Below are positions 3,204-58,483 of a stretch of DNA of 64,000 nucleotides, in pieces. Both the position numbers and the translations under genes were made by a program. The DNA is from a virus (Duplodnaviria > Heunggongvirae > Uroviricota > Caudoviricetes): positions 8,095-72,094 of IMG/VR virus record IMGVR_UViG_3300022555_000023; one strand, written 5' to 3'. The notes beneath the pieces were generated by a model. That model did no database searches. It had not been told where the DNA came from and saw only the letters and a program-made list of their open reading frames with translations. The number at the start of each line of letters is the position of its first letter. Positions within the stretch are counted from its first letter, which is position 1.

Positions 3204-3231
3204 GACGATTCTCCTTTGTAAGATCATTTGA

Positions 3232-4299
3232 TTAGACAATACCCTGCAGCACGGCTGCTGTGCGTCCAACCATAGACGCGATGGTGACTCCAATCGGGTT
3301 CAGTAGCTGGCCCGCGTTCTTGGTTCCGCCGTTGGGCAGGATGACCCAATACGGATCGGTGCCCGCTGCTGGTGCGGCTATGCCAAGAATCTTACAGAAG
3401 TTGTAGGGACCGATGAGACCCGTAAGACCCAGACCGTTCGGGATGCCGGCGGCGGTCGGTGCTGTGCCGGTAATCGCCCGGTAGCACATGTAGGTGCTGC
3501 CGTTTGTCGCAAGCATCCCAGGAACGTAGGACGTACCGCCCGCGTAGGCTCCGGGCGAACCGATACTGGTCGTGGCCGTGATGCTGGTCAACCACCGCAT
3601 CGTGGTGTTGGGGTTGCCCCAGTCCTTGATGTTGTAAGCCTCGCTGTACTGAGCCAGACTTCCGCCCGTCGTCAGCAAGGTTCCAGGCTGGCGAGCGTTA
3701 CCGGACACTCCGTAGCCGTCGCTGACACCCTGCGAAACGTTGGGTCCGAAAAGCTGGGAGGTCTGACCTGCGGCGATGTTCTGCACGTCAACCCGCACCT
3801 GATCGAGGACGTCCACCACCGTACCGTAGACCGCCCGCAGTCCGATGACCGCACCCGTGCCGCTGCTGGCCGCACCGGAGGAGTTGACAGCCGTGGTCGT
3901 GGCGAAGCCCGCCTTGTATCCCGTACCGGGAACCAAGGGCAAGACGGCGGTCACACCGCCCGTCGCGCTGATTCTGGCCACCACCACCTTGCCGCCCGAC
4001 GCCCCGGTCTGCACCAGGGTCAGGATGTCGCCGATGCGGTAGTTCTGCCCCGCACCGCCCGGCTGTGTGGCAGCCTTGGCCCAGGGTAGAAGGTCCGAGC
4101 CTGACGTCAGCACCGCCCGTCGAAACGGCTTCTTGTAGAAGGCGTCGATGGCCGCGTACTGCGTGGCCGAGATGTAGCCCGCTGTCGTGCCCGGCCCAGT
4201 GTACATGAGGCGGGCCATTCGCAGCAGGGCGAACTGGAAGTAGCGAATCTTCCGCCGCGGCGGCATTTCGCTGGACTGGTAGGTCTTCAATGTGGCCAT
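3232..4299 (-). CDS. putative virion structural protein, Gly/Thr/Ala-rich
   Basis: 355-aa ORF with ACGGAG SD. The composition resembles beta-rich fibre or decoration proteins. No family recognised. Confidence 0.6.
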   Translation of the reverse strand: MATLKTYQSSEMPPRRKIRYFQFALLRMARLMYTGPGTTAGYISATQYAAIDAFYKKPFRRAVLTSGSDLLPWAKAATQPGGAGQNYRIGDILTLVQTGASGGKVVVARISATGGVTAVLPLVPGTGYKAGFATTTAVNSSGAASSGTGAVIGLRAVYGTVVDVLDQVRVDVQNIAAGQTSQLFGPNVSQGVSDGYGVSGNARQPGTLLTTGGSLAQYSEAYNIKDWGNPNTTMRWLTSITATTSIGSPGAYAGGTSYVPGMLATNGSTYMCYRAITGTAPTAAGIPNGLGLTGLIGPYNFCKILGIAAPAAGTDPYWVILPNGGTKNAGQLLNPIGVTIASMVGRTAAVLQGIV

Positions 4300-4320
4300 T
4301 GTAATGGTGCTCCGTATGGT

Positions 4321-4824
4321 TTACTGAACTTCGGCGTCCGCCGTGCCGGTGACACGCGCTTGCAGGCCCGCTTCCCGCATGGCACGCACCACGCGTGCCC
4401 CGCAGTCGATGATCACGATCATAGCGTCCGTCTCAATGCGGGCCTGTGCGCCATTTCGCGAGACGGTTTGTTGAATTGCGTAGGTGTCCGTTGACCGGCG
4501 ACGCAGAGTGGCCAGGGTGCGTTCCAACGCGTGCAGCCTGTTCACAATGGTCGGATCCGGTTCGGGCACGCTGCCCACCACCGTGGGATCGCCGAAGCGG
4601 CGTCGCAGGAGGATGCCCTGCATTTCCCAGATGGCTCGGGCCAATTCCGCCGTGCGGCTTGCCAGGCCATCACCTGTGGCGATGTCCTCGATATCGGCGA
4701 GGAGGACGTCAAGGACAGCCTCGTCGGGATATGGCGTGCGGGGCGGCGGAGTGTATTGCGGCTGCTCGCGGATGATGCGACGGCGGCTGCTGGTGTTCGT
4801 TGTTGATTCGGCTACTTCTGGCAT
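4321..4824 (-). CDS. hypothetical protein
   Basis: 167-aa ORF with TAGGAGA SD. Confidence 0.65.
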   Translation of the reverse strand: MPEVAESTTNTSSRRRIIREQPQYTPPPRTPYPDEAVLDVLLADIEDIATGDGLASRTAELARAIWEMQGILLRRRFGDPTVVGSVPEPDPTIVNRLHALERTLATLRRRSTDTYAIQQTVSRNGAQARIETDAMIVIIDCGARVVRAMREAGLQARVTGTADAEVQ

Positions 4825-4863
4825 TTCGGAAATCTCCTAATTCGGCTTCGGATGATCGCGGGC

Positions 4864-5559
4864 TTATTTGCCCGCCTTGTGCTGCTCCCATGCAGCTTTG
4901 TTGACGTAGTACTGGCTGTGCTCATGCACGCTTGGCGACTGCCCCTTGGGCGTGACCAGCACCTGATTGTTTTGGGATCGCGTCGCGCTGCCACCGGCGG
5001 GATTGTGCTCGACGTAATCGCCTGCGGGAAGATGACCCGCGTAGGGCACACCGGCCTGATATCCGTGCGACGGGATTTTGCCGGCGGGAACGGTGACGGC
5101 TGACGCGAGCTTTGTTGCTTCGGCGTCGTGATTGGCCGCCTCTTCGAGATGACCCTTGACCTTGTTCTGATACTCCCGCTTGTTCTCCTGCCACTTTTCT
5201 AATGGCTCGTAACCTTCATCCTCGTACCGTGACGCGGGGTATGGAACCTTGGGGGCGGCTGGGAAATCGTCGAGGGCCTCGTTGATGACACTGGCCGCAC
5301 GCCGGTTCAAGTCGGCTGCGGTCTTATGGGCCTCGGGCGTGTTCTTATCGTAAGCATCGTTCGTGGCGTCGATGGCCTTATCGGAAGCCTTATCGGGATC
5401 GCCGCCGTCCGTGTACTGATTGCCGCGAAACTTGTGGCCGGCAACATCACCCAGAACCAGGTCACCGCCACGAAGGTTATCATGACTCAAGGTCATGTCG
5501 GAAGCGTGGCCCGGCTTGATTCCCAAAAAGGTGTCAATGGTCTTGTTCAGGCTCGACAT
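4864..5559 (-). CDS. protein with GHxFRGNQY module
   Basis: ORF trimmed to ATG 5559 (MSSLNKTIDTF). LVLGDVAGHKFRGNQY at 5413..5460. Confidence 0.7.
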   Translation of the reverse strand: MSSLNKTIDTFLGIKPGHASDMTLSHDNLRGGDLVLGDVAGHKFRGNQYTDGGDPDKASDKAIDATNDAYDKNTPEAHKTAADLNRRAASVINEALDDFPAAPKVPYPASRYEDEGYEPLEKWQENKREYQNKVKGHLEEAANHDAEATKLASAVTVPAGKIPSHGYQAGVPYAGHLPAGDYVEHNPAGGSATRSQNNQVLVTPKGQSPSVHEHSQYYVNKAAWEQHKAGK

Positions 5560-5613
5560 GATGTTACCTATGATACGATATGACGCAGCAGCACTGCAAG
5601 GGCTTAACTGCAT

Positions 5614-5689
5614 TGACTTCCATAATACACGGTTGGGGCAATCTTAGCGATACCATTACTTTTCTCATTTTACAATGATCTAAGTATGA
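5614..5689 (-). promoter_or_regulatory. AT-rich intergenic spacer, candidate promoter
   Basis: One of the few AT-rich gaps in the window. The minus strand contains TTGTAA-N17-TATCGC and TGTATTATGG (extended -10-like). Confidence 0.3.
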
Positions 5690-8600
5690 TCAACCCTTGG
5701 CATGCTGCTCAGCTTGGCGACGATAGAATCGTGCCCGACCGAAGTGATTACTCGCTCGGTTCGTGCTGCCGGCAGCTCGGTGCTTCACGGCAGAATCGGC
5801 AAACGCCTCAGATGCCCTGACTGCCAACGAGGCTTTCTCGCCCGGTGATGCCGTGGATGCTCGGTACGCCTTGCCCGCCTGCTGGGCCGTCTTCATGGCC
5901 GCGTCAGCACGCTCCTGCATGGCCGCGTAAGCTGGATGATCCTTGAGCTTGCCCTTGCGGTCTTCAAACTCGTGGTCGCTGGCCCCGTGCTCGTGCAGGT
6001 GCATGAAGGCCATCAGGGCTCGGGCCTGCTCGTCATGGTCTTCGGTTCCGGGCTGGTCTCCGACCGCCTCGGCCAGCTTGGCGGCCTTCATGTGCTTCAC
6101 CGCGGCATCGCCCAGGCGGTTGCCGATCCAGTGGTGCATGGAATCCTCGATGTCGGGCGTCAGGGCCTGCGGCGGTCCACCGTGGTGGTGGGCGTTCATG
6201 GCCTCGCCCGCAGCTATGCGGGCGGCGTAGTCGGCCTGCTCGTACTGGATAGCCTTCTTCGCGTCGGGCTCCTTGGGCTGGCCAGCACTGTACTGATTGC
6301 CGCGGAATTCATGCCCCGCAACGTCACCAAGCTCCAGCGGCACATCCAGACTCAACCGAGCGTCGCGGGGGCGGCGGGGAGGATGGGCTTCAGCCTGGGC
6401 CTTGGCCGCGTTATCTCGCAGGGCCTGCATCCTGCCGGCGGATGGCAGTCTGACCACGTGCTCGCCTGCTCCGCGTATGCGTCGCGATTCCTCCTCGTGT
6501 TCGCGAGCCGCAGAGATTGCTGCCTTCTGGGCGGCGTGGTGCATGCTGGCGAACTCCAGGCTGACGTCACTGCCGTCTTCTTCATGATGCTGGGCGGCGA
6601 GAACATGACCTTTAGCAGCCTTCTGGAACTGCTCGGCGGCCTTATCATGATCTGCCGCCGCACCGGAGGCAATGGCTTTCTTCGCCGTCACCAGGGCCAC
6701 GTTGTTATCGCTGGTCGACGCGATGCTCTTGGCTAGTGCGCCCTTCTGCACCGTACCGGCTAGGGGGAACAACTTATAGTTCCGGATGGCGGCGTTAGCC
6801 TTGGCAGATGATTCTGTTGCCGTGAACTGGTTGCCATGAAACGCGTGCCCTGCGACGTCACCAAGCTCGATAGGTAGATCATGACTCAGGCCCTTGATCT
6901 GGAAATCATTCTGACGGCCCTGCACGTTGGCATTGTGAGCATCCCCGTACTTGCGACCATGCTCGTCATCATCTTCCGGGTTCCAGCCGGCGGCAATGGC
7001 CTGCCTACGCATCTCATCTGCCTGGAGACTCATGCGTTTTCCCTGAGCCATCGAAGTATGACGTGTTGCCAGGTCTTCCAGCTTCTCAGGATCATTGGCA
7101 GCACTCTTCGCCACGGGCAAACCACGGTTCTCATACACGCCCCGCACGGTTCTGCCGACAGCCGCAGCCTCCCTCAGATGACCCGCAGCATCGAGATGAT
7201 GCTGTATGGCCTCGGGTGTATCCCCGGCAGCCAGAGCCCGTGATGCTGCTTGTCCAGCCTGCGTTGTATGGTACTTGTGCTCAACGTAGGCTGACATACT
7301 TACATCATTTGCCGCCGCGTGCGTATCATCATGAAGTTGCTGAGCTGCCGTGACTGCATTGCTTTGCGCTACCGCCGGCAATGCAGTCAAATCTGTCTGG
7401 GGACGGTCATGATACGGCTCGATCATATTCTTACCCACGCTTTGCTGCGGGTTTATGGGCAGTCCCGCATCGTGCGTGATCACAACAGCATTGCCGCGGT
7501 CTTCGACGACCCGGAAGTCACGAGCATCATCTCCGGGATCCTGCCACTCCGGTTTGATGGCTACCCGCTGGCCTGCCAGGTACTGGCCGTGCTGCTCGGC
7601 GGCTCCCTCCAGATACTTAGCCGTCTCAATATGCTCTCGTGCCGCCATTCTGTGCTGGCCGCGTTCAAGCTGGGTCAGCCTTGGTGCCTCAGAGGCATTC
7701 GCATGACCTTCGGCGGCGTCGCGACAACGTGATGCTGCGGCAGAATACAGGCCGTCCTTGACGAGACGCTTCGCATCATCTGAAGCGTCCACATGACGTT
7801 TGCCAGCCCGTGCGCCCTTCGTACTGTTGGTGGCGTCACTAGCCTTCTTCACAGCATCAACGGCTCCCTGGTGCGTGTACTGATTCCCGTGGAACTCGTG
7901 ACCTGCAACGTCACCAAGCTCAAGATCAATATTTAGGCCATGACCTAAATTTAGGTCATCGGCTAACGCGGTGTCAGTTTGGCTCATGGCCATATCCTCT
8001 GGTTTGGTACTTCCAGTCCAAGACTGGAGATGATGGTTCGCCAGTTCCTGTAGGGCCTCGCCGGCAGAGCGACAGGCGTCGGCGGCGTCTTCATGATATG
8101 AATCGTGACCATCGGAACTGTTCAGGTCAGCATCGTTGTGCAGGTCGGCTGTGTGATGATACTCGTTCGCAGCCCTCGCACAGGCTTTGAAAGCAGCGTC
8201 GTTCGACCGGCCCGAGGCTGACTCCTTCAGGGCGACCACGGCTGCCGTGTTGGCCGCACCGTGTGCGTCGCGTGCGGCTGCTCCGCGGCGACCGGGCGGT
8301 GAGCCAATGGCTTCCTTGCTGGCCTTGGCGGCGTAGTCTACGGCCTCCTGTGCGGTCGCGGCGAACCTCCCACGGGCGTCCCGTTCCTGGCCCTCGCCGT
8401 GGCTGGCCCGCAGATCTCCCCGCAGGGCGGTAGCTCCGTCGCCAACAGCGTCGTCCTTGGGCTGGCACGTCTGGCCGCAGGTCGGGCACTTACCATCCTG
8501 ACACGCACCCTTGCAGGCCGGGCAGGTGGCATCCTGGCTCAATGCGGCGTCCTTACCGCCACCGATGAGAACCGGGTGTCCGTTGATCGTGACCCAATGA

Positions 8601-9442
8601 GCATCGTCCGGAAGTTTGGATCCGGCGTTGTGCGTGCGGGCCTTCACGCGGTGCTGGGATGCTGCATCGGACAGGCCCGCCTTCTCGGCCTTGCGGGCTG
8701 CGTCATTCCGGTCTAGATAAGCGTTCCTGTGCGCCCGCCGCAGGTTGACCAGATTGCCGTGGGACGGATCCGCACGGTGGGCGTCCTCGGCGGATTTGAC
8801 CTGGGACGCACGACGGTCGGCCCGTGCAGATGCCGTGGCGTGCTTCTTCAGGTTGCCAGCCTTTTCCTTTTCGGCCTTCTTGGCAGCTTCGGCCTTCGCC
8901 TTATCATCTGCAACCTTTTTATCGGCGGCGGCCTTCTCCCTGGCCAGTCGTTGGCTGCGGGCCACGAAGCCCTCCTGTGGAGTCTGGGCGAGATTTCTGC
9001 GGCCCACGTTAAGAACGCGTCCAATAGCACGGTCGCCAAACACGTTCGTGTTCCAGGCCCCGCCCCGTCCGCGGTTGCGGCCCGCGTCGGTTCGGTCCTT
9101 GACGAACTTCTGCCAGTGCTTCTTGTCGGCTGCGGACATCATATCATGGGAGATCTCGTGATGCCCGCCGGGGTTGGCCTCCTGGTCATGCATCATATCG
9201 TATGCATGGTCGGCAGACTTGGCCGGGCCGTACAGGTTACCTTCTGATATTCCGGGCTGCTCGATGTAGTCGCTGTGGAAGTCGCTGCCCATCTCCGACC
9301 GCATGCGGTCGGCTTTATCTTCATCGGGATAAGGTGCGACGGCGCAGTACCATTTGCCCTTCTCGGGTTCAAAGACCACGCAGTCCCGCTGCACGGACAG
9401 AATCAGGGCGGGCATCTCAACGGGGATATCTAGGGCTGACAT
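5690..9442 (-). CDS. very large Ala-rich protein with three GHxF[HR]GNQ[YF] modules and a Cys-rich knuckle
   Basis: Start moved to ATG 9442 (AAGGATG SD), giving 1250 aa. Modules at 7877..7924, 6824..6871 and 6290..6337. CPACKGACQDGKCPTCGQTC cluster. Confidence 0.8.
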   Translation of the reverse strand: MSALDIPVEMPALILSVQRDCVVFEPEKGKWYCAVAPYPDEDKADRMRSEMGSDFHSDYIEQPGISEGNLYGPAKSADHAYDMMHDQEANPGGHHEISHDMMSAADKKHWQKFVKDRTDAGRNRGRGGAWNTNVFGDRAIGRVLNVGRRNLAQTPQEGFVARSQRLAREKAAADKKVADDKAKAEAAKKAEKEKAGNLKKHATASARADRRASQVKSAEDAHRADPSHGNLVNLRRAHRNAYLDRNDAARKAEKAGLSDAASQHRVKARTHNAGSKLPDDAHWVTINGHPVLIGGGKDAALSQDATCPACKGACQDGKCPTCGQTCQPKDDAVGDGATALRGDLRASHGEGQERDARGRFAATAQEAVDYAAKASKEAIGSPPGRRGAAARDAHGAANTAAVVALKESASGRSNDAAFKACARAANEYHHTADLHNDADLNSSDGHDSYHEDAADACRSAGEALQELANHHLQSWTGSTKPEDMAMSQTDTALADDLNLGHGLNIDLELGDVAGHEFHGNQYTHQGAVDAVKKASDATNSTKGARAGKRHVDASDDAKRLVKDGLYSAAASRCRDAAEGHANASEAPRLTQLERGQHRMAAREHIETAKYLEGAAEQHGQYLAGQRVAIKPEWQDPGDDARDFRVVEDRGNAVVITHDAGLPINPQQSVGKNMIEPYHDRPQTDLTALPAVAQSNAVTAAQQLHDDTHAAANDVSMSAYVEHKYHTTQAGQAASRALAAGDTPEAIQHHLDAAGHLREAAAVGRTVRGVYENRGLPVAKSAANDPEKLEDLATRHTSMAQGKRMSLQADEMRRQAIAAGWNPEDDDEHGRKYGDAHNANVQGRQNDFQIKGLSHDLPIELGDVAGHAFHGNQFTATESSAKANAAIRNYKLFPLAGTVQKGALAKSIASTSDNNVALVTAKKAIASGAAADHDKAAEQFQKAAKGHVLAAQHHEEDGSDVSLEFASMHHAAQKAAISAAREHEEESRRIRGAGEHVVRLPSAGRMQALRDNAAKAQAEAHPPRRPRDARLSLDVPLELGDVAGHEFRGNQYSAGQPKEPDAKKAIQYEQADYAARIAAGEAMNAHHHGGPPQALTPDIEDSMHHWIGNRLGDAAVKHMKAAKLAEAVGDQPGTEDHDEQARALMAFMHLHEHGASDHEFEDRKGKLKDHPAYAAMQERADAAMKTAQQAGKAYRASTASPGEKASLAVRASEAFADSAVKHRAAGSTNRASNHFGRARFYRRQAEQHAKG

Positions 9443-9672
9443 GATACATCCTTGGTTAGCGGCGGGCATGCTTCATGCGGTTCATGGCATGCCAAACATC
9501 GCAGGCATAATGATGCTGCGATGAAATTTGTGGCTTCAGTGATGAACTTCTCACGACGAGACGCTTCGTCCTTCTCATAGCGGCGGAACTTCTCATACAG
9601 GTTCTCAGCCAGGCGGCGAGCAAACTCGTCGTGATTACGCATCGCATCTCGGGCCTCCGTATCACATAGCAT
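9430..9672 (-). CDS. hypothetical small helical protein
   Basis: Part of ORF 9430..9735. RNHDEFARRLAENLYEKFRRYEKDEA looks protein-like. Start uncertain. Confidence 0.4.
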   Translation of the reverse strand: MLCDTEARDAMRNHDEFARRLAENLYEKFRRYEKDEASRREKFITEATNFIAASLCLRCLACHEPHEACPPLTKDVSCQP

Positions 9673-9698
9673 AACGGATGAAGGCCGTTCAGGCGACG

Positions 9699-10139
9699 TT
9701 ATGGCTTGGGGCACGGCCCGCCCGCGGGGCAGCACGCTTTCTCTAGCGGCACCTTGATGGCGTAAGTGCAGACCGACTGATCGAACTTGCCCAACTGCTT
9801 AGCCTTATCATTGGAGTAGCTGGCTTCACATGTTCCCGGATACTCGCCGTTGGGCACGCAGGCACATAGCTCGTGTTTGACCACGCAGCCGCAGGGACTG
9901 ACGCTCTTGATCATGTGCAACGTCTTGGGCTGCTCGGGATTGGGCTTGCCGTCTTTGAACGCCGGCGGCTTGGTCATGTAGTCGTAGACCGTGGCTTTGC
10001 ACGGCCCATTCTTATGCGGGCACTCGGCAGGCACGGGAGCCGAGATGATGACCAGGCCGGGGTGCGTGACGTCGGGACATTCAATCTCGAAGTCGGCCCC
10101 AATGAAAGATGCTGCCAGTAGTAACGCTGCGGTTAACAT
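9699..10139 (-). CDS. secreted cysteine-rich protein
   Basis: TAGGAGA SD. Signal-like N-terminus MLTAALLLAASFIGA. 12 Cys in 146 aa. Confidence 0.7.
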   Translation of the reverse strand: MLTAALLLAASFIGADFEIECPDVTHPGLVIISAPVPAECPHKNGPCKATVYDYMTKPPAFKDGKPNPEQPKTLHMIKSVSPCGCVVKHELCACVPNGEYPGTCEASYSNDKAKQLGKFDQSVCTYAIKVPLEKACCPAGGPCPKP

Positions 10140-10160
10140 GATCTGTCTCCTAGAGGTTAG

Positions 10161-10337
10161 TTACTCAGACCAATCTGAGATTTGAGCGTAACGCTTTGCG
10201 ATATCCAGTTCGATCTGGAGCCGCTTGTTTTGTGCCCCGCTGCTGCACGCCTCGCCGCACCAATGATTCGCGGCGGCCAGCAAGATGATATTCAGGCAGA
10301 CAGAAATAATTAGGGCTGTGAGTAATACGGCGATCAT
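10161..10337 (-). CDS. small membrane protein (58 aa)
   Basis: Below the ORF-track cutoff. GGAGGAAAT then ATG 10337. MIAVLLTALIISVCLNIILLAAA transmembrane helix. 4-nt overlap with 10334..10579. Confidence 0.55.
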   Translation of the reverse strand: MIAVLLTALIISVCLNIILLAAANHWCGEACSSGAQNKRLQIELDIAKRYAQISDWSE

Positions 10338-10579
10338 ATTTCCTCCGTGTTGGTTCGACAGGTCGCTTCCTCCATACGAATGATCATGTCGTAGATACGA
10401 CGTGTTGACTCGTTGCAGGTTGCATCTGGCCCGGCCCGGCTGCCTACTTCATCGGTCTGCAACCACGATTCGTCTACGGCGGAGACCTTCGTATCGACGT
10501 GCGTGCGAGTGTTGGTCTCACGTATCCGCCCCAGGGTATTTTCCATGCGAAGCAAACGCTGCTTCAGGCTGTGTATCAT
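10334..10579 (-). CDS. hypothetical protein
   Basis: 81-aa ORF, AGGGGG upstream of ATG. Confidence 0.6.
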   Translation of the reverse strand: MIHSLKQRLLRMENTLGRIRETNTRTHVDTKVSAVDESWLQTDEVGSRAGPDATCNESTRRIYDMIIRMEEATCRTNTEEI

Positions 10580-11283
10580 ATTGAGCCCCCTGGAAATGCA
10601 GCCCGCCCAGTCATTGGGCTTAAACGTTGCTCGCCTCGGGTGCTTCTAGATTTAAATGTGGGGCGGGGGCCTGAATCTGTTGCCGGGTCGGAAAAGCGAG
10701 TGGCGGCTGTGTTTGGCGCGTCCGACCCGATTTTCAAAGCTGTAGTCCCCGTGACCCCCCGTCCATGAGAAGCATCACGTCTCCTGTCTACATAGATACT
10801 GTCTACATAGATACTGTCTACATAGATACTGTCTACATAGATACTGTCTACATCCGCCCCCATGACTTCCGTTTGCTTCGGTATGATATCCTTATCATAT
10901 TGTTGTTGAATCAACGTGTGACGCGACGCACAACCACGCAACATGTCTATACAGATCTTGTTACGTCGCTGTGCGTTCATTACGCTACTCCTGTACACCG
11001 TCTTCGATCACGCGACGCAACCGTGATCTCCTGCGATCACTGGATGTCTTGCGTTGCACACGTCCATTAGATTACAGTTACTGTTCGCGTGTGTATGATC
11101 TTCATTCATCGTTCGTTTCATGAAGACGCGTCCTGTCACGCGTCTCACGCTCGTCCTTGGGTTTAAATCTTCCCTTAGAGTTGCCCAGCCATCTGTATGA
11201 CGTACACATCGTGCAACGCACGCTGCGTCTACGCTTACCGTTGGTCTTACGTCGTGTGCCCATGTGCGTGTGTGATCTCGTGG
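10580..11283. other. ~700-bp non-coding gap with tandem repeat and hairpins (candidate origin or regulatory hub)
   Basis: Only low-complexity or Arg-rich ORFs here. Inverted repeats GATCACG-N9-CGTGATC (~11007) and GACGCGT-N6-ACGCGTC (~11124). Stem GGGTCGGA..TCCGACCC (~10686-10729). Confidence 0.5.
10784..10854. repeat. 15-bp tandem repeat CTGTCTACATAGATA x 4.7
   Basis: Perfect head-to-tail copies read directly from the sequence. Confidence 0.95.
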
Positions 11284-11478
11284 CTAACAGATGATCTTGG
11301 GTTGTTGGTCAGGCAGCGGGTCTCCAGTCGTTACCCTATTGGGCACACGTGGGTCCTGGATAGGCGGGCCAACAGGAAACGTCCCTAGCCCAGGCTGCAC
11401 TGTAGGCCCGCATGCACACGACCGCACCCACGGGGCGTTGGCCCTTCCACACTTCGGGCACGTCCATCCTTCGTTCAT
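11284..11478 (-). CDS. small zinc-ribbon protein
   Basis: WTCPKCGRANAPWVRSCACG, a RanBP2-like CxxC..CxC pattern. Confidence 0.65.
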   Translation of the reverse strand: MNEGWTCPKCGRANAPWVRSCACGPTVQPGLGTFPVGPPIQDPRVPNRVTTGDPLPDQQPKIIC

Positions 11479-11666
11479 GGCTTGGCTACCTCATGTGCCG
11501 TAATAGTGATACTGCCGCCCGCGTCAACGACCGGCTTATCGTTGGCGACCAATTGGCGTAACAGGCCGATGGCACTTAGGCCGTGAAATTGGGCCTCTGT
11601 GTAACTGGCCTGTGTGATGATCATGTTGTCCTTGTCCTTGGCGACAACGTTGTAGGTCATGGTCAT
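11475..11666 (-). CDS. hypothetical protein
   Basis: Trimmed to ATG 11666 (GGAGCC SD, ATGA overlap with the stop of 11663..12226). Confidence 0.55.
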   Translation of the reverse strand: MTMTYNVVAKDKDNMIITQASYTEAQFHGLSAIGLLRQLVANDKPVVDAGGSITITAHEVAKP

Positions 11667-12226
11667 GATTTCGGCTCCTGTGATGTTGAAAAGTAAATAC
11701 AATCGCTCTCGTGAAAATGCCTTGTTGTTCCGCCCTTGTAAATCTTGATTTCGGCCTGTGGGAATTCCTCGTGGAACATGGCCTCAGTTAATACGTGCAA
11801 ATGCAACTTGTCTGTGGGCCAGTTAATCGGCTCGAAGACTCGCAGCACTTTTGCACATGACTTCGCCTTCCTTAGTATCATTCTGGGATCGACTACATGC
11901 TGCAGCACGTTGAAGATCCACGCTTCATCGAAAATCGAGGGTGCCTCGTACTGCTCGAACGGCAGGGGGATGATCTCGACGTCGTCTCGTTGCAGCTTGT
12001 CATGATACGCGACCCACAGCGGATCAACGTTCACGGCTCTGCGAAACATCGGCAAGTTGCCGCATACCGGAAAGTTTCCACCGCCGATCTCCAGGATCGT
12101 TCTGTCTGCTACGTCCTCGGCTGTGATGGCGAGATACTGGAAAACCTCATAGTTTCGGCGACTAACATCAGCGTTCTGGCCGTGATGCTTCTCATGGCTC
12201 TGGGCCTCGATCCATTGTTTGTTCAT
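11663..12226 (-). CDS. class I SAM-dependent methyltransferase
   Basis: Motif I ILEIGGG. Later AWIFNVLQHVVDP is typical of Methyltransf_11/23-like folds. Confidence 0.75.
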   Translation of the reverse strand: MNKQWIEAQSHEKHHGQNADVSRRNYEVFQYLAITAEDVADRTILEIGGGNFPVCGNLPMFRRAVNVDPLWVAYHDKLQRDDVEIIPLPFEQYEAPSIFDEAWIFNVLQHVVDPRMILRKAKSCAKVLRVFEPINWPTDKLHLHVLTEAMFHEEFPQAEIKIYKGGTTRHFHESDCIYFSTSQEPKS

Positions 12227-12471
12227 TTTGGCCCCTTCAAGCTCGTCATACTATCGTACAACAGGAAAGCGGTTCGTTGAAATTCTCGCACTGCCTTTCT
12301 CAACTTGGTCTGGGCCTCGCTGGATGCGGCTTTAATATCCATCATTTTTAAGGCCCTTGTGTCGGCCTCGATATTCGCGGCCAGATGAGCGGCCCTCAAA
12401 TTGGCTTGTGGATCCGGCTCGGGTTTTACGGGATTTTCGGGCAAGCTGGCTATGGTCAGTTTACGATCCAT
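12223..12471 (-). CDS. hypothetical protein
   Basis: 82-aa ORF, 4-nt overlap with downstream gene. Confidence 0.55.
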   Translation of the reverse strand: MDRKLTIASLPENPVKPEPDPQANLRAAHLAANIEADTRALKMMDIKAASSEAQTKLRKAVREFQRTAFLLYDSMTSLKGPK

Positions 12472-12475
12472 GATA

Positions 12476-13177
12476 TTACGCCAGCCTGTACTTCGTGAAC
12501 GTCCAGAAGGTCTCGAACAATGGGCAGTAGCGGCAGAACCTGTGAAACTCCGCCGTAGCCTCGTCCTGGAGAAGCCTGATGATTCTGGTTTCAGACTTCG
12601 ACTTGTGCTCGCCGGTTTGTGATATGACCCACTTGCCGCGGAAGGCCCGCGCTAGATTGAGCCTGTAATCCTCGGATGCATGAGTCGGCTCGACAGTCAT
12701 ATCATCAAAAACAACGTCGTACTTGTCGGCGTTCTCGTACAAGTATCGGAACGCGTCACCTACGTTCACGTGCAGCTTGTGGGCCTCGCCGTTAAGGCTT
12801 ATGGGAAAGTGCCGCCGGCAAACGTCGAGAACCTCGCTATCAATCTCACAGCATGTGACTCGTGCCACGTTGGGCAGGTCGCATAGCTCGGCTGCCAGGC
12901 TGCCGTCGCCTCCGCCCATGATCAAGACCCGCATGTGATCCATGTCGGGCAGCAGGTCGAGCATAGCCCGATCATACTCAGTATCACTGTTGGCCGACAT
13001 AACATCGTCGCCCACGATGAGGGTCTTGCCATGAGCCTCATGATCCATGACCCTAATGATCTGAAAAGGCGACTTGCGCTCTTCGAGAATTCCAGAGAAC
13101 TTGTACCTGACCGGCCCGACGCGGTCTTCACTGTAGATAGTCAGGGATAATCCGTCATCGTCCCACTGTGAGTTCAT
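12476..13177 (-). CDS. spermidine synthase-like aminopropyltransferase
   Basis: SPFQIIRV..GKTLIVGDDVMSANSDTEYDRAM, VLIMGGGDGS and CEIDSEVLDVCRRHFP match the spermidine synthase (SpeE) family pattern. Confidence 0.7.
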   Translation of the reverse strand: MNSQWDDDGLSLTIYSEDRVGPVRYKFSGILEERKSPFQIIRVMDHEAHGKTLIVGDDVMSANSDTEYDRAMLDLLPDMDHMRVLIMGGGDGSLAAELCDLPNVARVTCCEIDSEVLDVCRRHFPISLNGEAHKLHVNVGDAFRYLYENADKYDVVFDDMTVEPTHASEDYRLNLARAFRGKWVISQTGEHKSKSETRIIRLLQDEATAEFHRFCRYCPLFETFWTFTKYRLA

Positions 13178-13718
13178 TTGTCTTTCCTGTCAGGTCATCG
13201 TGAGGTGCATCCCGATACAGGAAGTTAACTTTCCTGAACTTGGGCTTGAATCGTTCGTCGATCATCTTCAGGACGACCGACTGGTCATACGGCTTGCACG
13301 AGAAGATATCGAAGTACATGCTGCCGATGCGGTTGTCGCCGTGCATGGAGATGTTACTGGTTGTGATAAGCTGTAACGCACTCCAGCCACCATCGGAATC
13401 CGTGCCGAAGTTATACAGGAACGGCTCGCCCACGGCGGTCATCTTGATGGCCGCGACCAGATCCTTGATGAACTTCTTGATCTGCTTGCCGTCGTCGATG
13501 TTCTTGTTGCAGCCGGAGCAGTCCACCATCATGTGAAAGCCCCAATGCTCCTTGCCGTCTTCGCCCGTGAACAGATCATTTCGGGGATCGCGTTTGAGGT
13601 CGACTACGGGCGACTCGGGAATCGCGGCGGCATCTACGGGAGCGTCGCCCTGGGCCAGTTTGAGGTCGGCCTCGCGACCAGGCCGCAGGGACAGGAAAGA
13701 ATTCAGTTCGTGGTTCAT
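13155..13718 (-). CDS. S-adenosylmethionine decarboxylase-like (pyruvoyl proenzyme type)
   Basis: GFHMMVDCSGC.., LQLITTSNISMHGD.. and YFDIFSCKPYD resemble class 1 AdoMetDC. T-S sits where the E-S self-cleavage site normally lies. Confidence 0.6.
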   Translation of the reverse strand: MNHELNSFLSLRPGREADLKLAQGDAPVDAAAIPESPVVDLKRDPRNDLFTGEDGKEHWGFHMMVDCSGCNKNIDDGKQIKKFIKDLVAAIKMTAVGEPFLYNFGTDSDGGWSALQLITTSNISMHGDNRIGSMYFDIFSCKPYDQSVVLKMIDERFKPKFRKVNFLYRDAPHDDLTGKTNELTVGR

Positions 13719-14008
13719 ACTATTGCGCCTCTCGTGATATGAAAATGAGCGTGGCCCGCACTCGATGCGTCGATGCTCGGCTCGATGGTTATCGTGTCAA
13801 AGTCCTCGTCGCCAATCAACGTCCACGTATGATCCTGTCGTGCCGGATGGCACAAGATGTACTGGTCGTCGATGGCTTCGCGTCCCTTATGATGAAACTG
13901 TACCGCCAACCTGATATTCCTGCAACAGGGACAGTCGAACGTCAGGCCCACAAGTACGGTCTCGCCGGCGAAGGTCCACCACCGCGGGTTCAGTTCTCTC
14001 AGCCTCAT
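13715..14008 (-). CDS. DUF6527-like protein
   Basis: CPCC..W..IGDEDFDTITIEPSI..H.HFHITRGAIV pattern as I recall it for DUF6527. Confidence 0.45.
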   Translation of the reverse strand: MRLRELNPRWWTFAGETVLVGLTFDCPCCRNIRLAVQFHHKGREAIDDQYILCHPARQDHTWTLIGDEDFDTITIEPSIDASSAGHAHFHITRGAIV

Positions 14009-14607
14009 GATTTCCCTTCATGAAACTCGATGCCCACAATCCTGGGCACGCTGCCTTCGTACATCGTGGCTTGTTCGTTGGCTCGCCGGATGTCAACTTC
14101 GGTCTGCTTGAAGGGCAGGGTCAGGCATCGGAACCAGGCCGACACGACCTTGCCGTTGTGGGTCTCGATATCGAGGTAGTTACCCTCGCTATGCACGCTG
14201 CCGCCGTAGTATCGCGTGCCCTTGGCCCGGCAGGCGGCCTGTTGGTGCTTATGCCCACCGAAGGCCAGCAGGCCCGCTAGAAAGCCGTGTATGCGAGCCA
14301 GGGCCGTGGGCTTGGGCTGTTGTTCGCTTACAAAAGGCGGCTCGACGAGATGCTCGATGATATTGCGGGCGTCGCGTAGCAGGTCGCACGACATCCAGCG
14401 GCCCGCGTCTTTGTGCTGGCGGGACGCCTCGTCGAGTTGCTCCAGAACCGGCACTTCTTCGAGATTCTCCCGAATGAACACGGCCTTCTTCTCTGGGAAC
14501 CAGGCGGGCCACGAGCATACCATACAGTCGACTCCGCGATAGCCTTCGACTCGCAGCATAGTACCGTCGCCGGCACGATCACGAACGATACTGTTCTCGC
14601 GGATCAT
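14005..14607 (-). CDS. hypothetical protein
   Basis: ORF trimmed to ATG 14607 (ACGGAGA SD), which removes the overlap with 14621..15130. Confidence 0.6.
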   Translation of the reverse strand: MIRENSIVRDRAGDGTMLRVEGYRGVDCMVCSWPAWFPEKKAVFIRENLEEVPVLEQLDEASRQHKDAGRWMSCDLLRDARNIIEHLVEPPFVSEQQPKPTALARIHGFLAGLLAFGGHKHQQAACRAKGTRYYGGSVHSEGNYLDIETHNGKVVSAWFRCLTLPFKQTEVDIRRANEQATMYEGSVPRIVGIEFHEGKS

Positions 14608-14620
14608 AATATGATCTCCG

Positions 14621-15130
14621 TTAGGGCTTGTTGGCCTTCGGAATTTCCGGAGCCAGCGGGATATCAACCAGAGGAACCGTAGGATGCGGGCTATGCGTTC
14701 CCTGCCGCGACATCACGATCTTGACGGTCGATAGCACCTCGTCGATCTTCTTCTCGTTGTTCGCGGCGATACTGGCCGCAGCGTCGATCTTCTTGTTGCC
14801 GTCCTCGACTTTGGCGAGGGCTTTGTCGACATCGGTCTTGATGGCCGTAACAGTGGACTCGATGCCAGCCACCTTGGCCGATGTTTCGACTTGCCGAGTG
14901 CTCACCGTAGTAAGCCAAGTCTTCATGCTGTCCACCGTGACCTCGTCCTTGGTCTGCTGCACGAGCTTCGCGTCATGATCGGCCTGGCAATGGTTGCGAT
15001 ACTCGATATAGCCGATGACCACACCGATGCATCCGAACAGTCCTAACCACAATTCCCAACGGGTGTTGGTCTTTGGGCCGTGTTTGCTGGTCATCTTGAT
15101 TTCAACGTCGTTGGCGTCGGTCGACATCAT
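14621..15130 (-). CDS. single-pass membrane protein with coiled-coil ectodomain
   Basis: WELWLGLFGCIGVVIGYI transmembrane helix followed by heptad-like repeats. Confidence 0.6.
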   Translation of the reverse strand: MMSTDANDVEIKMTSKHGPKTNTRWELWLGLFGCIGVVIGYIEYRNHCQADHDAKLVQQTKDEVTVDSMKTWLTTVSTRQVETSAKVAGIESTVTAIKTDVDKALAKVEDGNKKIDAAASIAANNEKKIDEVLSTVKIVMSRQGTHSPHPTVPLVDIPLAPEIPKANKP

Positions 15131-15501
15131 TTGCCTCCAGTGGACTTGCCCTTCAGTTCTTCGATTTCTTTCTGCATATTCGAGATGACCACGCCTCGAT
15201 CAGAAAGTACCTTCTTCATGTCGTTGATATCTTCCTGCATGGTTTTCATATACTCGCCATTCTTGGCGATAGCTGCCGCATTACTCTTCATCTGGCTGGG
15301 CACGTATCCCGAGTCGCTGGCCAGATTGATCAACAGGATCGCGAGGAGCAAACCCATGAAGCCCAGCACCGCATATAGAATCTTGCGTAACGTCCTGATT
15401 TCCGGATCCGTGTATCGGCTCGCCTCCTGATGATTTGTGGGCTTAGTGCGAAGCCTCAGACAGCATCTTACCGTTTTCAGGAAATAACCGCCACATCGCA
15501 A
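15127..15501 (-). CDS. single-pass membrane protein with coiled-coil
   Basis: ILYAVLGFMGLLLAILLINL transmembrane helix plus helical tail. Start codon uncertain. Confidence 0.5.
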   Translation of the reverse strand: MRCGGYFLKTVRCCLRLRTKPTNHQEASRYTDPEIRTLRKILYAVLGFMGLLLAILLINLASDSGYVPSQMKSNAAAIAKNGEYMKTMQEDINDMKKVLSDRGVVISNMQKEIEELKGKSTGGK

Positions 15502-15502
15502 A

Positions 15503-15616
15503 TTACGGGCTGATAACTCGACGAAAAGATTCGCAGTGCATCAACACATAAACCGTAAGGCACGAGGTCATGATAGAAACTATCGCAGCCACGATCATAA
15601 CATAAGCCAACTTCAT
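15503..15616 (-). CDS. small membrane protein (37 aa)
   Basis: MKLAYVMIVAAIVSIMTSCLTVYVLM. Trimmed from ORF 15503..15700. Confidence 0.45.
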   Translation of the reverse strand: MKLAYVMIVAAIVSIMTSCLTVYVLMHCESFRRVISP

Positions 15617-15624
15617 GATATGCC

Positions 15625-15972
15625 TCACGCGAACAGTATGAACACCGAAAGCAGGGCTTCCAGTGCCGATAGGATCTGTGGCAAGTGACCCTCGATCCAA
15701 GTGATGATACTGCCCCAGTTGAACGTGGCCATCATCAGTTCGCCGATGCCGTAGCCGAGGTTATCAGCGGCGGCCATCGATGCGACCTTACCATGCATGA
15801 CGTCGATCAGGTTGCACGTCTCGCCTTTGTCGTTCTTCCGCATGGGCCGGGCTAGGGCTTCATGCACCGTGTCGGCCTGCTGCTGCGTGATCTTGCCCGC
15901 CCGCAACTGCGTGTGGGTCGCCCGATACATTGCCAAGCTGAACAGCGGATGGTGGAATAGGGCTTCGCTCAT
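15625..15972 (-). CDS. hypothetical protein
   Basis: ATG 15972 has an AAGGGA SD. Alternative start at 16047. Confidence 0.55.
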   Translation of the reverse strand: MSEALFHHPLFSLAMYRATHTQLRAGKITQQQADTVHEALARPMRKNDKGETCNLIDVMHGKVASMAAADNLGYGIGELMMATFNWGSIITWIEGHLPQILSALEALLSVFILFA

Positions 15973-16059
15973 GTTAAAAATCCCTTGGGTTTCAGGTGCG
16001 TTCCAGCCTAAGTAGCCAGTCGCGTGCGTGGTTTCGATACCGCCCATTATAGCCTGCTA

Positions 16060-16458
16060 TCAGAAACCGTCCTGAGCCTCGTTGCGGGCCGCAACCAGGC
16101 GTTCCAGTTCGGCCTCCAGATCGCGGACTCGCTCCTCGGTAGCAAAGTCGGCAACCCTGCCGCACATGCGTTCCATGAGGCTGAGCAGGTACATGCTCTT
16201 GCCACTGCGGGCATGACGGATCCAGTCGGCCACGAAGCCCTCCAGAACTTCATCCGTCATCTGGGCTCGGATAGCCGCCTGGATGCGGTTCTGCTCGCGC
16301 ACATACGGATTGCCGCCACTGCACCGATTACCTCTGAGAAACTTGCCCGACACCGGATCCCTGCCCGATGATGTCGACGTTGCTGCTTCGGTGGGCAACG
16401 CCGGCGGATCCTGCTTCGTATTCGGGTCGGAAGTGATACGCCTTCGATTGATACTCAT
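16060..16458 (-). CDS. hypothetical protein, possibly small-terminase-like; N-terminal RRRI tag
   Basis: MSINRRRITSDP. The GNRCSGGNPYVRE stretch is reminiscent of DUF5681-type small terminases (weak). Confidence 0.5.
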   Translation of the reverse strand: MSINRRRITSDPNTKQDPPALPTEAATSTSSGRDPVSGKFLRGNRCSGGNPYVREQNRIQAAIRAQMTDEVLEGFVADWIRHARSGKSMYLLSLMERMCGRVADFATEERVRDLEAELERLVAARNEAQDGF

Positions 16459-16607
16459 TATCGTCCTACCAGTTGAATTACCGGCTGCGTTCCGGTCGCC
16501 GTAGATCGCTACCGCGTGCGGCAGCCAGGCAACCCACAGATAAAAACGCAGCATCCATAACCATCGATCTTACATCGGGACCGGACTGCGTCAATACAAG
16601 TTAGCGG

Positions 16608-16850
16608 TTATTTCAGATCTTTCATCCAAAGATCATACTCTAACGCCACGTCGCGGTACTGCCTATGAAAGTGTTCCACGCTTTCGGCATCCCGCAGTTC
16701 GCTTGCGATCTGCATAGCACAAATGTTCCTGATCATTCGCAGATGGTAACCGATTACGCGTCGCAGTTGTTTGCACGCTTTGATCAACTGCCACGCACAT
16801 GCCAGGTTGATGAACGCGGCGGCGATAAAAACGAACCACATAACGGTCAC
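16608..16850 (-). CDS. small membrane protein
   Basis: MTVMWFVFIAAAFINLACAW transmembrane helix. Confidence 0.6.
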   Translation of the reverse strand: MTVMWFVFIAAAFINLACAWQLIKACKQLRRVIGYHLRMIRNICAMQIASELRDAESVEHFHRQYRDVALEYDLWMKDLK

Positions 16851-17599
16851 AGTTCACCACCGTTGGGCAGATTCTGGATGCGTCGTCGCTTCGGGCGTAA
16901 CTGCGGAGCAGTCGCACCAGGCGGGTCACGCAGATTGGGAATGCACGGCTCTTGGTCGATTTGCCGAATGCTGGCAAAAACGGCGGGCGGTATCTGCATC
17001 GCACGCATCACTCGCTGTTCTAACTCACGCATCTCCTCGGTGATATCTCGGGCTCGCGGCGTATTGGGGTTGCGCGGCTCACACGTCGGCCCAGTTGGTA
17101 CGACGTAGCGAAGATCGAGGGCGTCTTCAATACTACCGCCGTTGTGGACGCTTGGAATGACCGCGACCACCGAATCATGCATTGGGGCCGCTGTATAGCG
17201 GTGCCGATCCATCGCGTCGCGGAACGGCTCCATCGCTTCAAACGCACCATTCAGTGCCGTATCCAGGCCCGTACCAGCGAACACGTCCATCAGGGTGCGG
17301 CCCTGCGGCGGGTCTCGCAGTTCGGGCGGCTCAGGCCGCGGCGTTGCGCTCTGCACAGCCCACCGTAGACAATGCAAAGAGTTGATCATACAACTGCTCC
17401 ATCCCGATGGTGACGACGGATCAGGACTTGAATGTCTGATCACAGCTTCGCCCGCTTCCTTCAGAGCATCGCGATGCTGGGTGATGCGGGCGACGAAGTT
17501 GACCAGTTCATGATACTCCTCAGACGACGCATGGTTGCGTCGGGCTTGGTTGTAATTCCCCAGCAGTCTGTCCAGCGTTCGTCGTTCGTCTTGCGTCAT
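16847..17599 (-). CDS. hypothetical protein with C-terminal RRRIQ tag
   Basis: 250-aa ORF ending ..PKRRRIQNLPNGGEL*. Confidence 0.65.
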   Translation of the reverse strand: MTQDERRTLDRLLGNYNQARRNHASSEEYHELVNFVARITQHRDALKEAGEAVIRHSSPDPSSPSGWSSCMINSLHCLRWAVQSATPRPEPPELRDPPQGRTLMDVFAGTGLDTALNGAFEAMEPFRDAMDRHRYTAAPMHDSVVAVIPSVHNGGSIEDALDLRYVVPTGPTCEPRNPNTPRARDITEEMRELEQRVMRAMQIPPAVFASIRQIDQEPCIPNLRDPPGATAPQLRPKRRRIQNLPNGGEL

Positions 17600-17603
17600 G
17601 ATT

Positions 17604-18068
17604 TTACTCCATCCATGCCAGACACCCCGGCGTGCTACATCGTCCCCAGCAATGCCCGTTGATAGCCGCTATCGATAGCGTCAGCCGCCCGCCGCAGCCA
17701 GTCGGGCAATCTACGGTCTCCTGAGCGTTCTGGCGTTTGTGGCGGCTCCTGAAGGCATCCACGGTATCGGCGGCCATAGCATGACGTTCGAGAATACGGA
17801 TTAGTTCGATGTTCCTGGCTCGGCCCTCGGCCCGCGTGAACATAGCGAAATGATCACACGGCACGCGGTTTGAGTCCGATGCGTCGCTCAGTTTCCGGCA
17901 CGGTGCACGCAGTGCCCAGCCGATGTCAACCCCGCCTATCAGTCGCCTGATATCGATGTCCATAGCACACGGACGATCCTCTAACATGCCGCGAAAATGT
18001 CGGCATATCTGATCAGGCCCGGCCATCTTCGGGGCGGTTCTCATCCTGCGTCGTTCAGGCATGGTCAT
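17604..18068 (-). CDS. Cys-rich protein with N-terminal ERRRM tag
   Basis: MTMPERRRMRT.. CPTGCGG..GHCWGRCSTPGC. Confidence 0.65.
   Translation of the reverse strand: MTMPERRRMRTAPKMAGPDQICRHFRGMLEDRPCAMDIDIRRLIGGVDIGWALRAPCRKLSDASDSNRVPCDHFAMFTRAEGRARNIELIRILERHAMAADTVDAFRSRHKRQNAQETVDCPTGCGGRLTLSIAAINGHCWGRCSTPGCLAWME
17618..17625 (-). promoter_or_regulatory. GTGTCTGG junction motif
   Basis: 18 nt upstream of ATG 17599. Confidence 0.5.
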
Positions 18069-18111
18069 CTTTCAGTGGCGACGGCTTCATCATACGATGA
18101 CGCAATCACGA

Positions 18112-21387: not shown

Positions 21388-21532
21388 ACGTCCTTTACTC
21401 GGAAAGTGATCTTCAGTACGCCCGCCATCAACCGCTTTGCCACGGGTTCCCAAAGCTGGCCGTCGTAAAAGCGTGTACGGGGCCGCTGGTTACAAGAATA
21501 TTGGTCACGATAGTGATTCTCCTATGCCTTAT

Positions 21533-21540
21533 CCAGACAC
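21533..21540 (-). promoter_or_regulatory. GTGTCTGG junction motif
   Basis: 13 nt after stop 21554. Followed by ATAAGGCATAGGAG. Confidence 0.5.
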
Positions 21541-21553
21541 GGGAGGTTCAATA

Positions 21554-23235: not shown

Positions 23236-23420
23236 CCTATCCAGACATGCGGGTAGTCGCTCATGTGGCCCTCGTAAATCAACCAGAACACTTCGTCTCC
23301 GCCGATGGTCTCACCGCTTTCGGATGCATAATCATCGATCATGTTTCTGATCTCGGTTGGGCCGACGTTCTGGCCTGCGGTCAGGCGTTGCTGTAAGTAG
23401 TCTAGTAGGCTCATGATCAA
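23232..23420 (-). CDS. hypothetical protein
   Basis: 62-aa ORF, 4-nt overlaps on both sides. Confidence 0.55.
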   Translation of the reverse strand: MIMSLLDYLQQRLTAGQNVGPTEIRNMIDDYASESGETIGGDEVFWLIYEGHMSDYPHVWIG

Positions 23421-32753: not shown

Positions 32754-32789
32754 CATCCAGACACGTCGGGTTCGTATGACGCCTGGATG
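32754..32789 (-). promoter_or_regulatory. hairpin CAUCCAG-G-CGUC/GACG-UGU-CUGGAUG containing the junction motif
   Basis: Imperfect inverted repeat read from the sequence, between lipoprotein stop 32792 and SPFH start 32711. Confidence 0.5.
32757..32764 (-). promoter_or_regulatory. GTGTCTGG junction motif
   Basis: 45 nt upstream of ATG 32711. Forms the 3' arm of the hairpin. Confidence 0.5.
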
Positions 32790-52741: not shown

Positions 52742-52765
52742 CTTACAGGTTATTTCTTATGCTAT

Positions 52766-52773: not shown

Positions 52774-52786
52774 TTGGCTGTCCGCG

Positions 52787-58479: not shown

Positions 58480-58483
58480 ACGT

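Follow-up and report, generated by a model that had tools for sequence, protein, structure and literature searches.

The window analysed here, a stretch of 64,000 nt from a virus of the class Caudoviricetes (Duplodnaviria; Heunggongvirae; Uroviricota; IMG/VR record IMGVR_UViG_3300022555_000023, positions 8,095 to 72,094), contains at 10580-11283 an island of 704 nt with a tandem array of a 15-nt unit, which a first-pass annotation made from the letters had described as non-coding. The array is a hypervariable minisatellite and a hotspot of repeat instability, and it is the fastest-changing site seen in this phage. With a probability of about one half, it lies in frame within a translated, lineage-specific gene, ORF134 (ORF, open reading frame), which is followed in the island by a true spacer of ~300 nt. 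The region is bounded by two conserved genes of the minus strand, ORF64 upstream and ORF81 downstream, and shows the following elements:

10784..10853, tandem array of CTGTCTACATAGATA, 4.7 copies
10576..10980, minus strand, ORF134, candidate orphan gene spanning the array, with its ATG at 10980 and a TGA that overlaps the ATG of ORF81 (ATGA)
10988..10992, minus strand, Shine-Dalgarno (SD) sequence AGGAG, 7 nt upstream of the ORF134 ATG
10944..10956, plus strand, orphan degenerate unit TGTCTATACAGAT, 11/13 identical to the unit, in the orientation of the array and 91 nt away from it
10334..10579, minus strand, ORF81, first conserved gene downstream of the island, found on at least 23 contigs
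11284..11478, minus strand, ORF64, a real, zinc-ribbon-like small gene that bounds the island upstream and is ATGA-coupled to the preceding gene
10981..11283, intergenic spacer of 303 nt that separates ORF64 from the ORF134 start

Sequence of the 15-nt array

The head-to-tail repeat of 4.7 units reported by the first-pass annotation is borne out and clearly exceeds chance: Tandem Repeats Finder gives a period of 15 with 100% matches, and the unit CTGTCTACATAGATA is absent elsewhere in the 64-kb window at up to three mismatches. On the gene (minus) strand the array contains five ATGTAGACAG cores linked by TATCT, which read (VDSIY)n in the frame of ORF134, and the length of the unit is a multiple of 3. 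Alongside the array and the orphan unit, the island DNA contains the GACGGGGGGTCACGG block. The orphan unit is the sole match outside the array at up to two mismatches, against an expectation of 0.70 for both strands of the whole window; that one falls within ~150 nt and in matching orientation has, by our estimate, a chance of roughly 0.002. The units are contiguous and lack the unique spacers that a CRISPR array would have, the internal dyad TCTA-CA-TAGA of the unit is not above chance, and the RNA fold of the array is no better than that of shuffled sequences (z -1.0). The repeated CGCGACGCA words that had also been pointed out amount to two copies, which is chance level, our estimate for 704 nt being about one 9-mer that recurs.

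Copy-number variation

The same phage occurs in numerous assemblies of metagenomes, where its contigs reach 192.5 kb and 192.1 kb. It is carried by samples of the ERZ1426xxx, ERZ186xxxxx and ERZ273xxxxx series and by ERZ27245846, JGI 3300009175 and SRR5581337. Contigs that contain the flanking genes were taken from independent samples, and copies were counted as ATGTAGACAG cores. Across nine samples of this ~192-kb phage, the array shows 3, 4, 5, at least 6, 7 or 8 copies, distributed as follows:

3 copies: contigs L001, L002 and L007, from DNA
4 copies: contig L003, from DNA
5 copies: the window and contig L004, from DNA
at least 6 copies: contig L008, from DNA, the contig ending within the array
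7 copies: deduced from gene calls of 144 aa
8 copies: deduced from one gene call of 149 aa

The number of residues of ORF134 equals 109 + 5n, n being the number of cores, and gene callers report it as 124, 129, 134, 144 and 149 aa in other assemblies. The sequence around the array is invariant: in five assemblies aligned over 1 kb (alignment A1) all the bases outside the array are identical, and the 192.5-kb contig is 100% identical to window positions 4334-18226 (~13.9 kb) save for showing three array copies instead of five. The ERZ1426xxx study series contains alleles of 5, 7 and 8 copies in different samples, and ERZ1426818 very probably carries 3 copies, its gene spacing being identical to that of the 3-copy contig L009. 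The locus thus shows both characters of a variable-number tandem repeat (VNTR), head-to-tail units of high identity and copy polymorphism with 100% identical flanks. Conservation of the repeat number in relatives had been proposed as a check on the array; the number is not conserved, ranging from 3 to 8 within this phage, and the sister phage L016 shows no array.

Five contigs terminate inside the array, as expected for any repeat in assemblies made with short k-mers, and another one ends 34 nt from it. For the k141 contig L008, the break may point to mixed alleles within a single sample.

Besides the array, the nearby differences between strains are solely indels within the gene of a 1259-aa protein (minus strand, 5690-9469), which shows in-frame cassette indels between otherwise identical strains. 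About 726 nt of this gene are missing in L002, L005 and L010, and a second block is missing in L003. The indel edges are near 6334, 6846, 8674 and 9388: the first two fall on a ~50-nt motif repeated at 5400-5468, 6289-6334, 6821-6872 and 7872-7928, and the other two are off this motif. This motif, which encodes LGDVAGHxF(R/H)GNQY, recurs in the neighbouring proteins of 249 aa and 542 aa. The pattern resembles a shuffling of modules in a protein of fibre-like type. This population appears to change mainly through indels, at least some of which are mediated by repeats, and this fits a phage with a recombination system of its own.

Coding capacity of the array region

The island is not free of ORFs, since a frame of the gene strand, 134 codons from the ATG and 140 from a GTG, spans the array. 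A strong SD such as the one preceding it is found before 14 of the 62 real ATG starts (23%) and before 3.9% of the other ATGs, which is a ~6-fold enrichment. In a null where the array was kept and its flanks were shuffled, an ORF of at least 134 codons runs through the array in 4.3% of shuffles (p 0.043), and one that also has a strong SD in 0.08% (p 0.0008). Codon usage is gene-like over the first 40 codons, which score +0.17, with averages of +0.16 to +0.29 for real genes and -0.25 for the off-frame null. With a sense-strand ORF, a strong SD and a coupled stop, the description of the island as non-coding is doubtful for the 405 nt that contain the repeat, and it stands for the spacer (10981-11283), where no ORF with start signals, no Rfam family and no tRNA were found.

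The sister phage L016 is ~70% identical in the shared genes and keeps the genes at both sides, with amino acid identities of 75% for ORF64 (alignment A3) and 53% for ORF81 (alignment A4). Between these homologues it contains 1.46 kb of other genes and no 15-mer array, and the gene content of the region differs between both phages. Two DNA blocks only of the island are shared with L016: GCAATATGATA, at the start codon of the next gene, and the following one:

10733..10768, minus strand, block kept in L016, with core TCATgGACGGGGGGTCACGG followed by CAGCTT, which adjoins the array on its 3' side in the gene strand

The latter occurs once in the window and is 83% identical over 36 nt (blastn, alignment A2). 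No similarity to L016 was found in the spacer, nor between ORF134 and the L016 gene at the equivalent position.

Several observations weigh against a translated ORF134. Over its whole length the codon score is -0.145, close to the off-frame null, and the C-terminal 68 codons score -0.09; the corresponding residues are rich in R, G, S, T, P and A, and this half of the protein looks like an out-of-frame translation of GC-rich DNA. Among 5.8 billion clusters no homologues other than its own length variants were found, and a full HMMER search of 1.8 billion representatives gave repeat-driven hits only. The AlphaFold model has a predicted local distance difference test score (pLDDT) of 36 and no secondary structure, whereas a control protein of the same phage, also modelled from a single sequence, reaches 71. 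The differences of the orphan unit from the array are all non-synonymous in this frame, which fits an element acting at DNA level equally well as one acting at protein level. In L016, the one relative compared, the block 3' of the array is kept within an uncalled gap of 325 nt, and there the frame equivalent to ORF134 is closed. ORF134 is at best a young, lineage-specific gene, as judged from the alignment, because the L016 frame stops three codons past the first block; its C-terminal half overlaps what appears to be an untranslated leader in L016. The gene calls of the 192.5-kb contig also skip ORF134, but this is weak evidence because the conserved ORF64 is likewise skipped in that contig. 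Overall, the odds that ORF134 is translated are roughly even to slightly better than even.

If ORF134 is a gene, 10576-10980 on the gene strand would be a small gene heading the downstream block and translationally coupled to ORF81, and the array would encode in its frame a variable (VDSIY)n segment. The copy number changes far faster than point mutations accumulate, probably driven by slipped-strand mispairing or by unequal recombination, the phage having UvsX and gp46/47-type genes of its own. The remaining segment, 10981-11283, is a true intergenic spacer with a strong stem-loop and GATC-rich alternative hairpins; a role as operon end and/or regulatory leader is a reasonable inference.

Two other frames of the island were considered. 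A plus-strand ORF at 10765-11070 was rejected: it has no SD, is antisense to all its neighbours and has a codon score of -0.007. The other one lies in the spacer:

11102..11263, minus strand, ORF53, very basic, without SD, codon score 0.086, no family match, doubtful as a gene

Pfam and PHROGs gave no hits for any of the small ORFs in and around the island. That the island is the largest gap of the gene array, as had been noted, is supported on the crude gene map of the window on which this comparison rests: the other apparent gaps hold minus-strand ORFs with a good codon score, and 0.086 is the best in the island. At 57995-58483, where the window is AT-rich, no ORF scores well either (0.016 at best); this second such stretch may likewise be a regulatory island.

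Hairpins, spacer and base composition

The four inverted repeats that the first-pass annotation listed are all present, and two more were found, the hairpin at 11023-11040 and the AT-rich palindrome. The island shows the following DNA-level features:

11006-11028, hairpin GATCACG-N9-CGTGATC, perfect stem
11023-11040, hairpin GTGATC-N6-GATCAC
11006..11040, both hairpins together, overlapping and mutually exclusive (GATCAC/GTGATC), 14-50 nt upstream of the ORF134 SD
11124-11145, hairpin AGACGCGT-N6-ACGCGTCT, 8-bp arms, one bp more than first reported
11118..11150, minus strand, strong stem-loop of 12 pairs that includes AGACGCGT/ACGCGTCT, with no U-tract
11216..11228, small hairpin ACGCA-CGC-TGCGT, read directly from the sequence
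10685-10692 and 10721-10728, arms GGGTCGGA/TCCGACCC of the 8-bp stem of the first-pass annotation
10684..10729, minus strand, 9-bp stem CGGGTCGGA/TCCGACCCG closing a loop of 28 nt, in the leader or the C-terminal region of ORF134
10882..10899, AT-rich perfect palindrome TATGATA-TCCT-TATCATA
10765..10914, AT-rich island, 39% GC against a mean of 58%, second lowest 150-nt GC in the window
10954..11038, GATC cluster, four sites within 100 nt (10954, 11006, 11025 and 11035)

Three perfect stems of at least 7 bp in 704 nt are reached by 2.5% of the windows of the same size, so the hairpin clustering is modest. Folded as whole halves, the island is no better than its shuffles (z -1.3 for the spacer and 0.06 for the other half), and the local fold of 11006..11040 is not above them either (z -0.7). 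Three stems are individually more stable than their shuffles. The stem-loop at 11118..11150 has -18 kcal/mol and z -3.9, with none of 200 shuffles equally stable; it was not called by the terminator scan and is a candidate operon-end or RNA-processing hairpin. The segment 10680-10735 folds at -19.7 kcal/mol (z -2.3), and the palindrome shows a z of -3.1. A weak match of sigma-70 type, GTCACA-N17-TATGAT (10922-10894, minus strand), has a -10 hexamer that the palindrome overlaps. Both the sigma-70 promoter and the terminator scans are at chance level, the count of promoter-like sites not being above it, and a search for a promoter word common to other AT-rich junctions gave nothing convincing. 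A transcriptional boundary, one of the roles first suggested for the island, is thus plausible for the spacer with its strong stem-loop, but these scans do not back it.

The AT-rich segment consists mostly of the array itself and the adjacent palindrome, and the other AT-rich minima of the window are located at ordinary gene junctions. The density of the GATC cluster ties the window maximum and is reached by 0.16% of positions.

Alternative readings of the array

The alternative that survives best places the function in the DNA: the array would be a set of non-coding, operator-like or iteron-like binding sites in the AT-rich promoter or leader of the ORF81 block, its copies would tune occupancy and expression, and ORF134 would be fortuitous or irrelevant. 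This is possible, although doubtful. The AT-rich island contains both the array and the palindrome that overlaps the -10-like hexamer, the orphan unit lies close by in the same orientation, and the two blocks shared with L016, directly 3' of the array and at the start of the next gene, are both untranslated in that phage; the poor codon usage and lack of fold of ORF134 point in the same direction. However, ORF134 together with its strong SD has a p of ~0.0008 under the non-coding null, the symmetry of the unit and the promoter-like match are at chance level, L016 shows no array, no DNA-binding domain is recognised by Pfam or PHROGs in any neighbouring small protein, and a period of 15 bp would place successive sites on different faces of the helix. 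The AT-rich island, the orphan unit and the GATC cluster look operator-like or origin-like, as do the three stable stems, and keep the operator or iteron reading alive rather than establish it.

It is unlikely that the array is a functionless minisatellite, a neutral product of slippage in a hyperplastic region in which ORF134 is a chance or non-functional frame. Perfect units and their absence from L016 are what a young neutral expansion would show, the gene content of the region differs between both phages, and what else differs nearby between strains is also indels, of which one has a repeated motif at its edges. On the other hand, the translation signals around ORF134 are improbable by chance and the orphan unit suggests that the motif is older than the expansion, while the persistence of alleles of 3 to 8 copies across studies is compatible with neutrality and does not require it.

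There is also a small likelihood that the array is a selected contingency locus, either a programmed in-frame minisatellite that would lengthen and shorten rapidly or an operator array, heading a putative tail-fibre-side block in a large lytic phage, so that its length would tune a function in host interaction or against host defence and bet-hedging phenotypes would result. Such a locus would not belong to the class of the homopolymer loci, which act by frameshifting, that were recently reported for T-even phages.

A replication origin with iterons, proposed by the first-pass annotation, is improbable. An origin of this type would contain iterons, an AT-rich unwinding element and methylatable GATC, by analogy with T4 oriE or the lambda ori, and the island shows a circumstantial resemblance to it only: direct repeats of 15 bp in 3 to 8 copies plus one orphan unit, within the 12-22 bp range of iterons, the second most AT-rich 150 nt of the window, and a GATC cluster in the top 0.16% of positions in a phage that encodes a Dam-like methyltransferase (44997-46211) and a replication and recombination module of T4 type, comprising UvsX and gp46/47. 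Against this, no initiator-like gene is adjacent, and no Rep, O or RepE-like domain is recognised in the neighbours by Pfam and PHROGs. The cumulative GC skew is monotonic in the window, with no inflection, although skew is uninformative when the genes share one strand; long ORFs are nearly all on the minus strand at both sides of the array, with no strand switch. The contiguous, head-to-tail period differs from the spaced arrangement of classical iterons, and the copies vary in number and are missing from the syntenic site of L016, while the T4 iterons, which themselves have no proven origin role, are kept in relatives.

A pac or cos packaging signal, or a physical genome end, is very improbable. 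Some pac sites, such as that of P1, hold repeated motifs that bear GATC, and contigs end in or next to the array; but neither the 192.5-kb contig nor the window stops at the site, which they pass by ~26 kb and 10 kb, respectively; any repeat that is polymorphic or exceeds the assembly k-mer in length is expected to break contigs, and no terminase is recognised among the neighbouring genes scanned. The packaging site proposed at first is therefore not upheld, and there is no positive support for either the origin or the packaging reading. Least credible of all is the reading in which transcription of the array yields a repeated non-coding RNA, a decoy for host defence like the pseudo-ToxI of phage TE: the pattern in that phage matches the copy-number change seen here (PMC3475682), but the unit has 15 nt instead of the 36 nt of ToxI, no Rfam match was obtained at E values up to 1, and the array RNA folds no better than its shuffles. 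A partition centromere or an operator of ParR-TubR type, which would also contain contiguous repeats, was rejected, as the flanking genes show no adaptor and no ParA, ParM or TubZ domains.

The phage and the neighbouring genes

Among the proteins of the window, a gp32-like single-strand DNA-binding protein, a UvsX/RecA recombinase and SbcCD-like gp46/47 nucleases are recognisable. The UvsX identity is at most 41% to any of the phages listed, and megablast, blastn and tblastn gave no match against GenBank phages or plasmids. Nothing syntenic was found by scanning IMG/VR with the repeat, a flanking protein, the zinc-ribbon alignment and the conserved block; the scans of the JGI metagenomes gave just four chance matches to the conserved block, and the dimer of the 15-nt unit was not found in the GTDB genomes. 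Thus, neither the GenBank phages nor IMG/VR contain a close relative of this phage. Two further sequences were of no help: L013, with a relative of ORF146 (48% identical), is not syntenic, and L015 is mosaic and too short. Positions 1-1174 of the latter encode a 218-aa protein whose last 289 nt are 100% identical to ORF146 (window 9669-9957) and whose first 885 nt are unrelated, which marks a mosaic junction inside ORF146.

The island sits at a module boundary, as had been noted: upstream of it are accessory genes and those of polyamine synthesis, and the downstream block contains large unannotatable proteins with a common repeated motif. The polyamine synthesis pair, at 12476-13718 on the minus strand, comprises an S-adenosylmethionine (AdoMet) decarboxylase (13155-13718) and a spermidine synthase (12476-13177), both kept in L016. 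The virion role first assigned to the downstream block is not supported by Pfam, PHROG or PDB sequence searches, which gave no hits, and the model of its protein p167 matched generic helical bundles only.

The likeness that the first-pass annotation saw between the repeat core TGTCTAC and a junction motif is spurious and was rejected: the motif, CGTGTCTGGAT, shares just TGTCT with it, on the other strand, and on the gene strand is the Val-Ser-Gly-stop end of several small genes. This word is over-represented in the window, with 10 hits at up to one mismatch and 1.4 expected, and has sites on the minus strand at 21531-21541, 23239-23249, 23778-23788, 32755-32765, 35258-35267, 35868-35878 and 52764-52774. 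It reads GTG TCT GG(A/T) followed by the stop, often directly before the start of the next gene, so that six or more small genes have Val-Ser-Gly as their C terminus (Met-Ser-Gly in one). It could be a shared C-terminal tripeptide or a recombination or junction sequence.

L016 contains a short tandem repeat of its own at 4314-4337, CAGATGCACTGG/CAGATGCACGGG, two copies in the homologous leader, ~75 nt 3' of the conserved block and unlike the window array in sequence and position. Between the ORF64 and ORF81 homologues, at 3094-3693 on the minus strand of the locus, there is a 199-aa antisense ORF that contains CxxC pairs, looks HNH-like and may encode a homing endonuclease in this hyperplastic spot; Pfam gave nothing for it. 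At 6470-7414, just upstream of a large fibre-like protein, L016 has a gene for a protein of 314 aa that contains response-regulator receiver and PAS domains, which is an unusual cargo for a lytic phage.

Significance

The locus is of value mainly as a natural hypermutable locus and a strain marker. Because its alleles differ among samples whose surrounding ~14 kb is identical, the copy number of the array is a ready-made marker for the strains of one uncultivated ~192-kb phage across metagenomes. The array is also a test case for whether changes in tandem-repeat length are functional in lytic phages, as in phage TE, or a by-product of T4-type recombination. Finally, an iteron-like array in a phage gap cannot be called an origin from the letters alone: this one is unstable in number, is missing from L016 and is in frame within an ORF whose translation signals are good.

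Comparison with known systems

VNTR or minisatellite loci of bacterial and phage genes with in-frame units share with this array the perfect head-to-tail units, a unit length that is a multiple of 3, polymorphic copy numbers and the gain or loss of whole peptide units. Here, the carrier is an orphan ORF with no predicted fold, uncertain translation and no known phenotype.

The lambda origin likewise has direct repeats that lie within a reading frame and border an AT-rich segment. The lambda iterons are ~19 bp long, spaced, imperfect and stable in number, and are located inside the gene of the initiator itself (O), whereas ORF134 shows no similarity to any initiator. T4 oriE contains direct repeats of 12 nt, placed at equal intervals, that are kept at the syntenic sites of relatives and whose role is unproven (PMC3016281). 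Both phages have direct repeats that are short (12 nt in T4 and 15 nt here) and of unproven function, together with genes for replication and recombination of T4 type; here the repeats are contiguous, variable in number and missing from L016, and no repE-like gene is recognised.

Phage contingency loci consist of short simple sequence repeats (6 bases or more) in which polymerase slippage produces reversible frameshifts and on/off switching (PMC12633550). They share with this array a hypermutable repeat that gives heterogeneity to the population, but they belong to a different class, as the 15-nt unit changes the length in frame and no on/off switch results.

In phage TE, the wild-type and the escape genomes differ solely in a tandem repeat of an intergenic locus, which expanded from 1.5 copies to 4.5-5.5; this expansion defeats an abortive-infection system and is attributed by the authors to strand slippage (PMC3475682). 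Its units are of 36 nt, intergenic, and mimic a structured antitoxin RNA, whereas those of the array are of 15 nt, lie in an ORF and show no signal of an RNA family or fold. Both cases show a tandem repeat in a large genome of myovirus type with the copy number as the single difference, and by analogy the escape locus of phage TE can be regarded as the closest functional precedent for the array.

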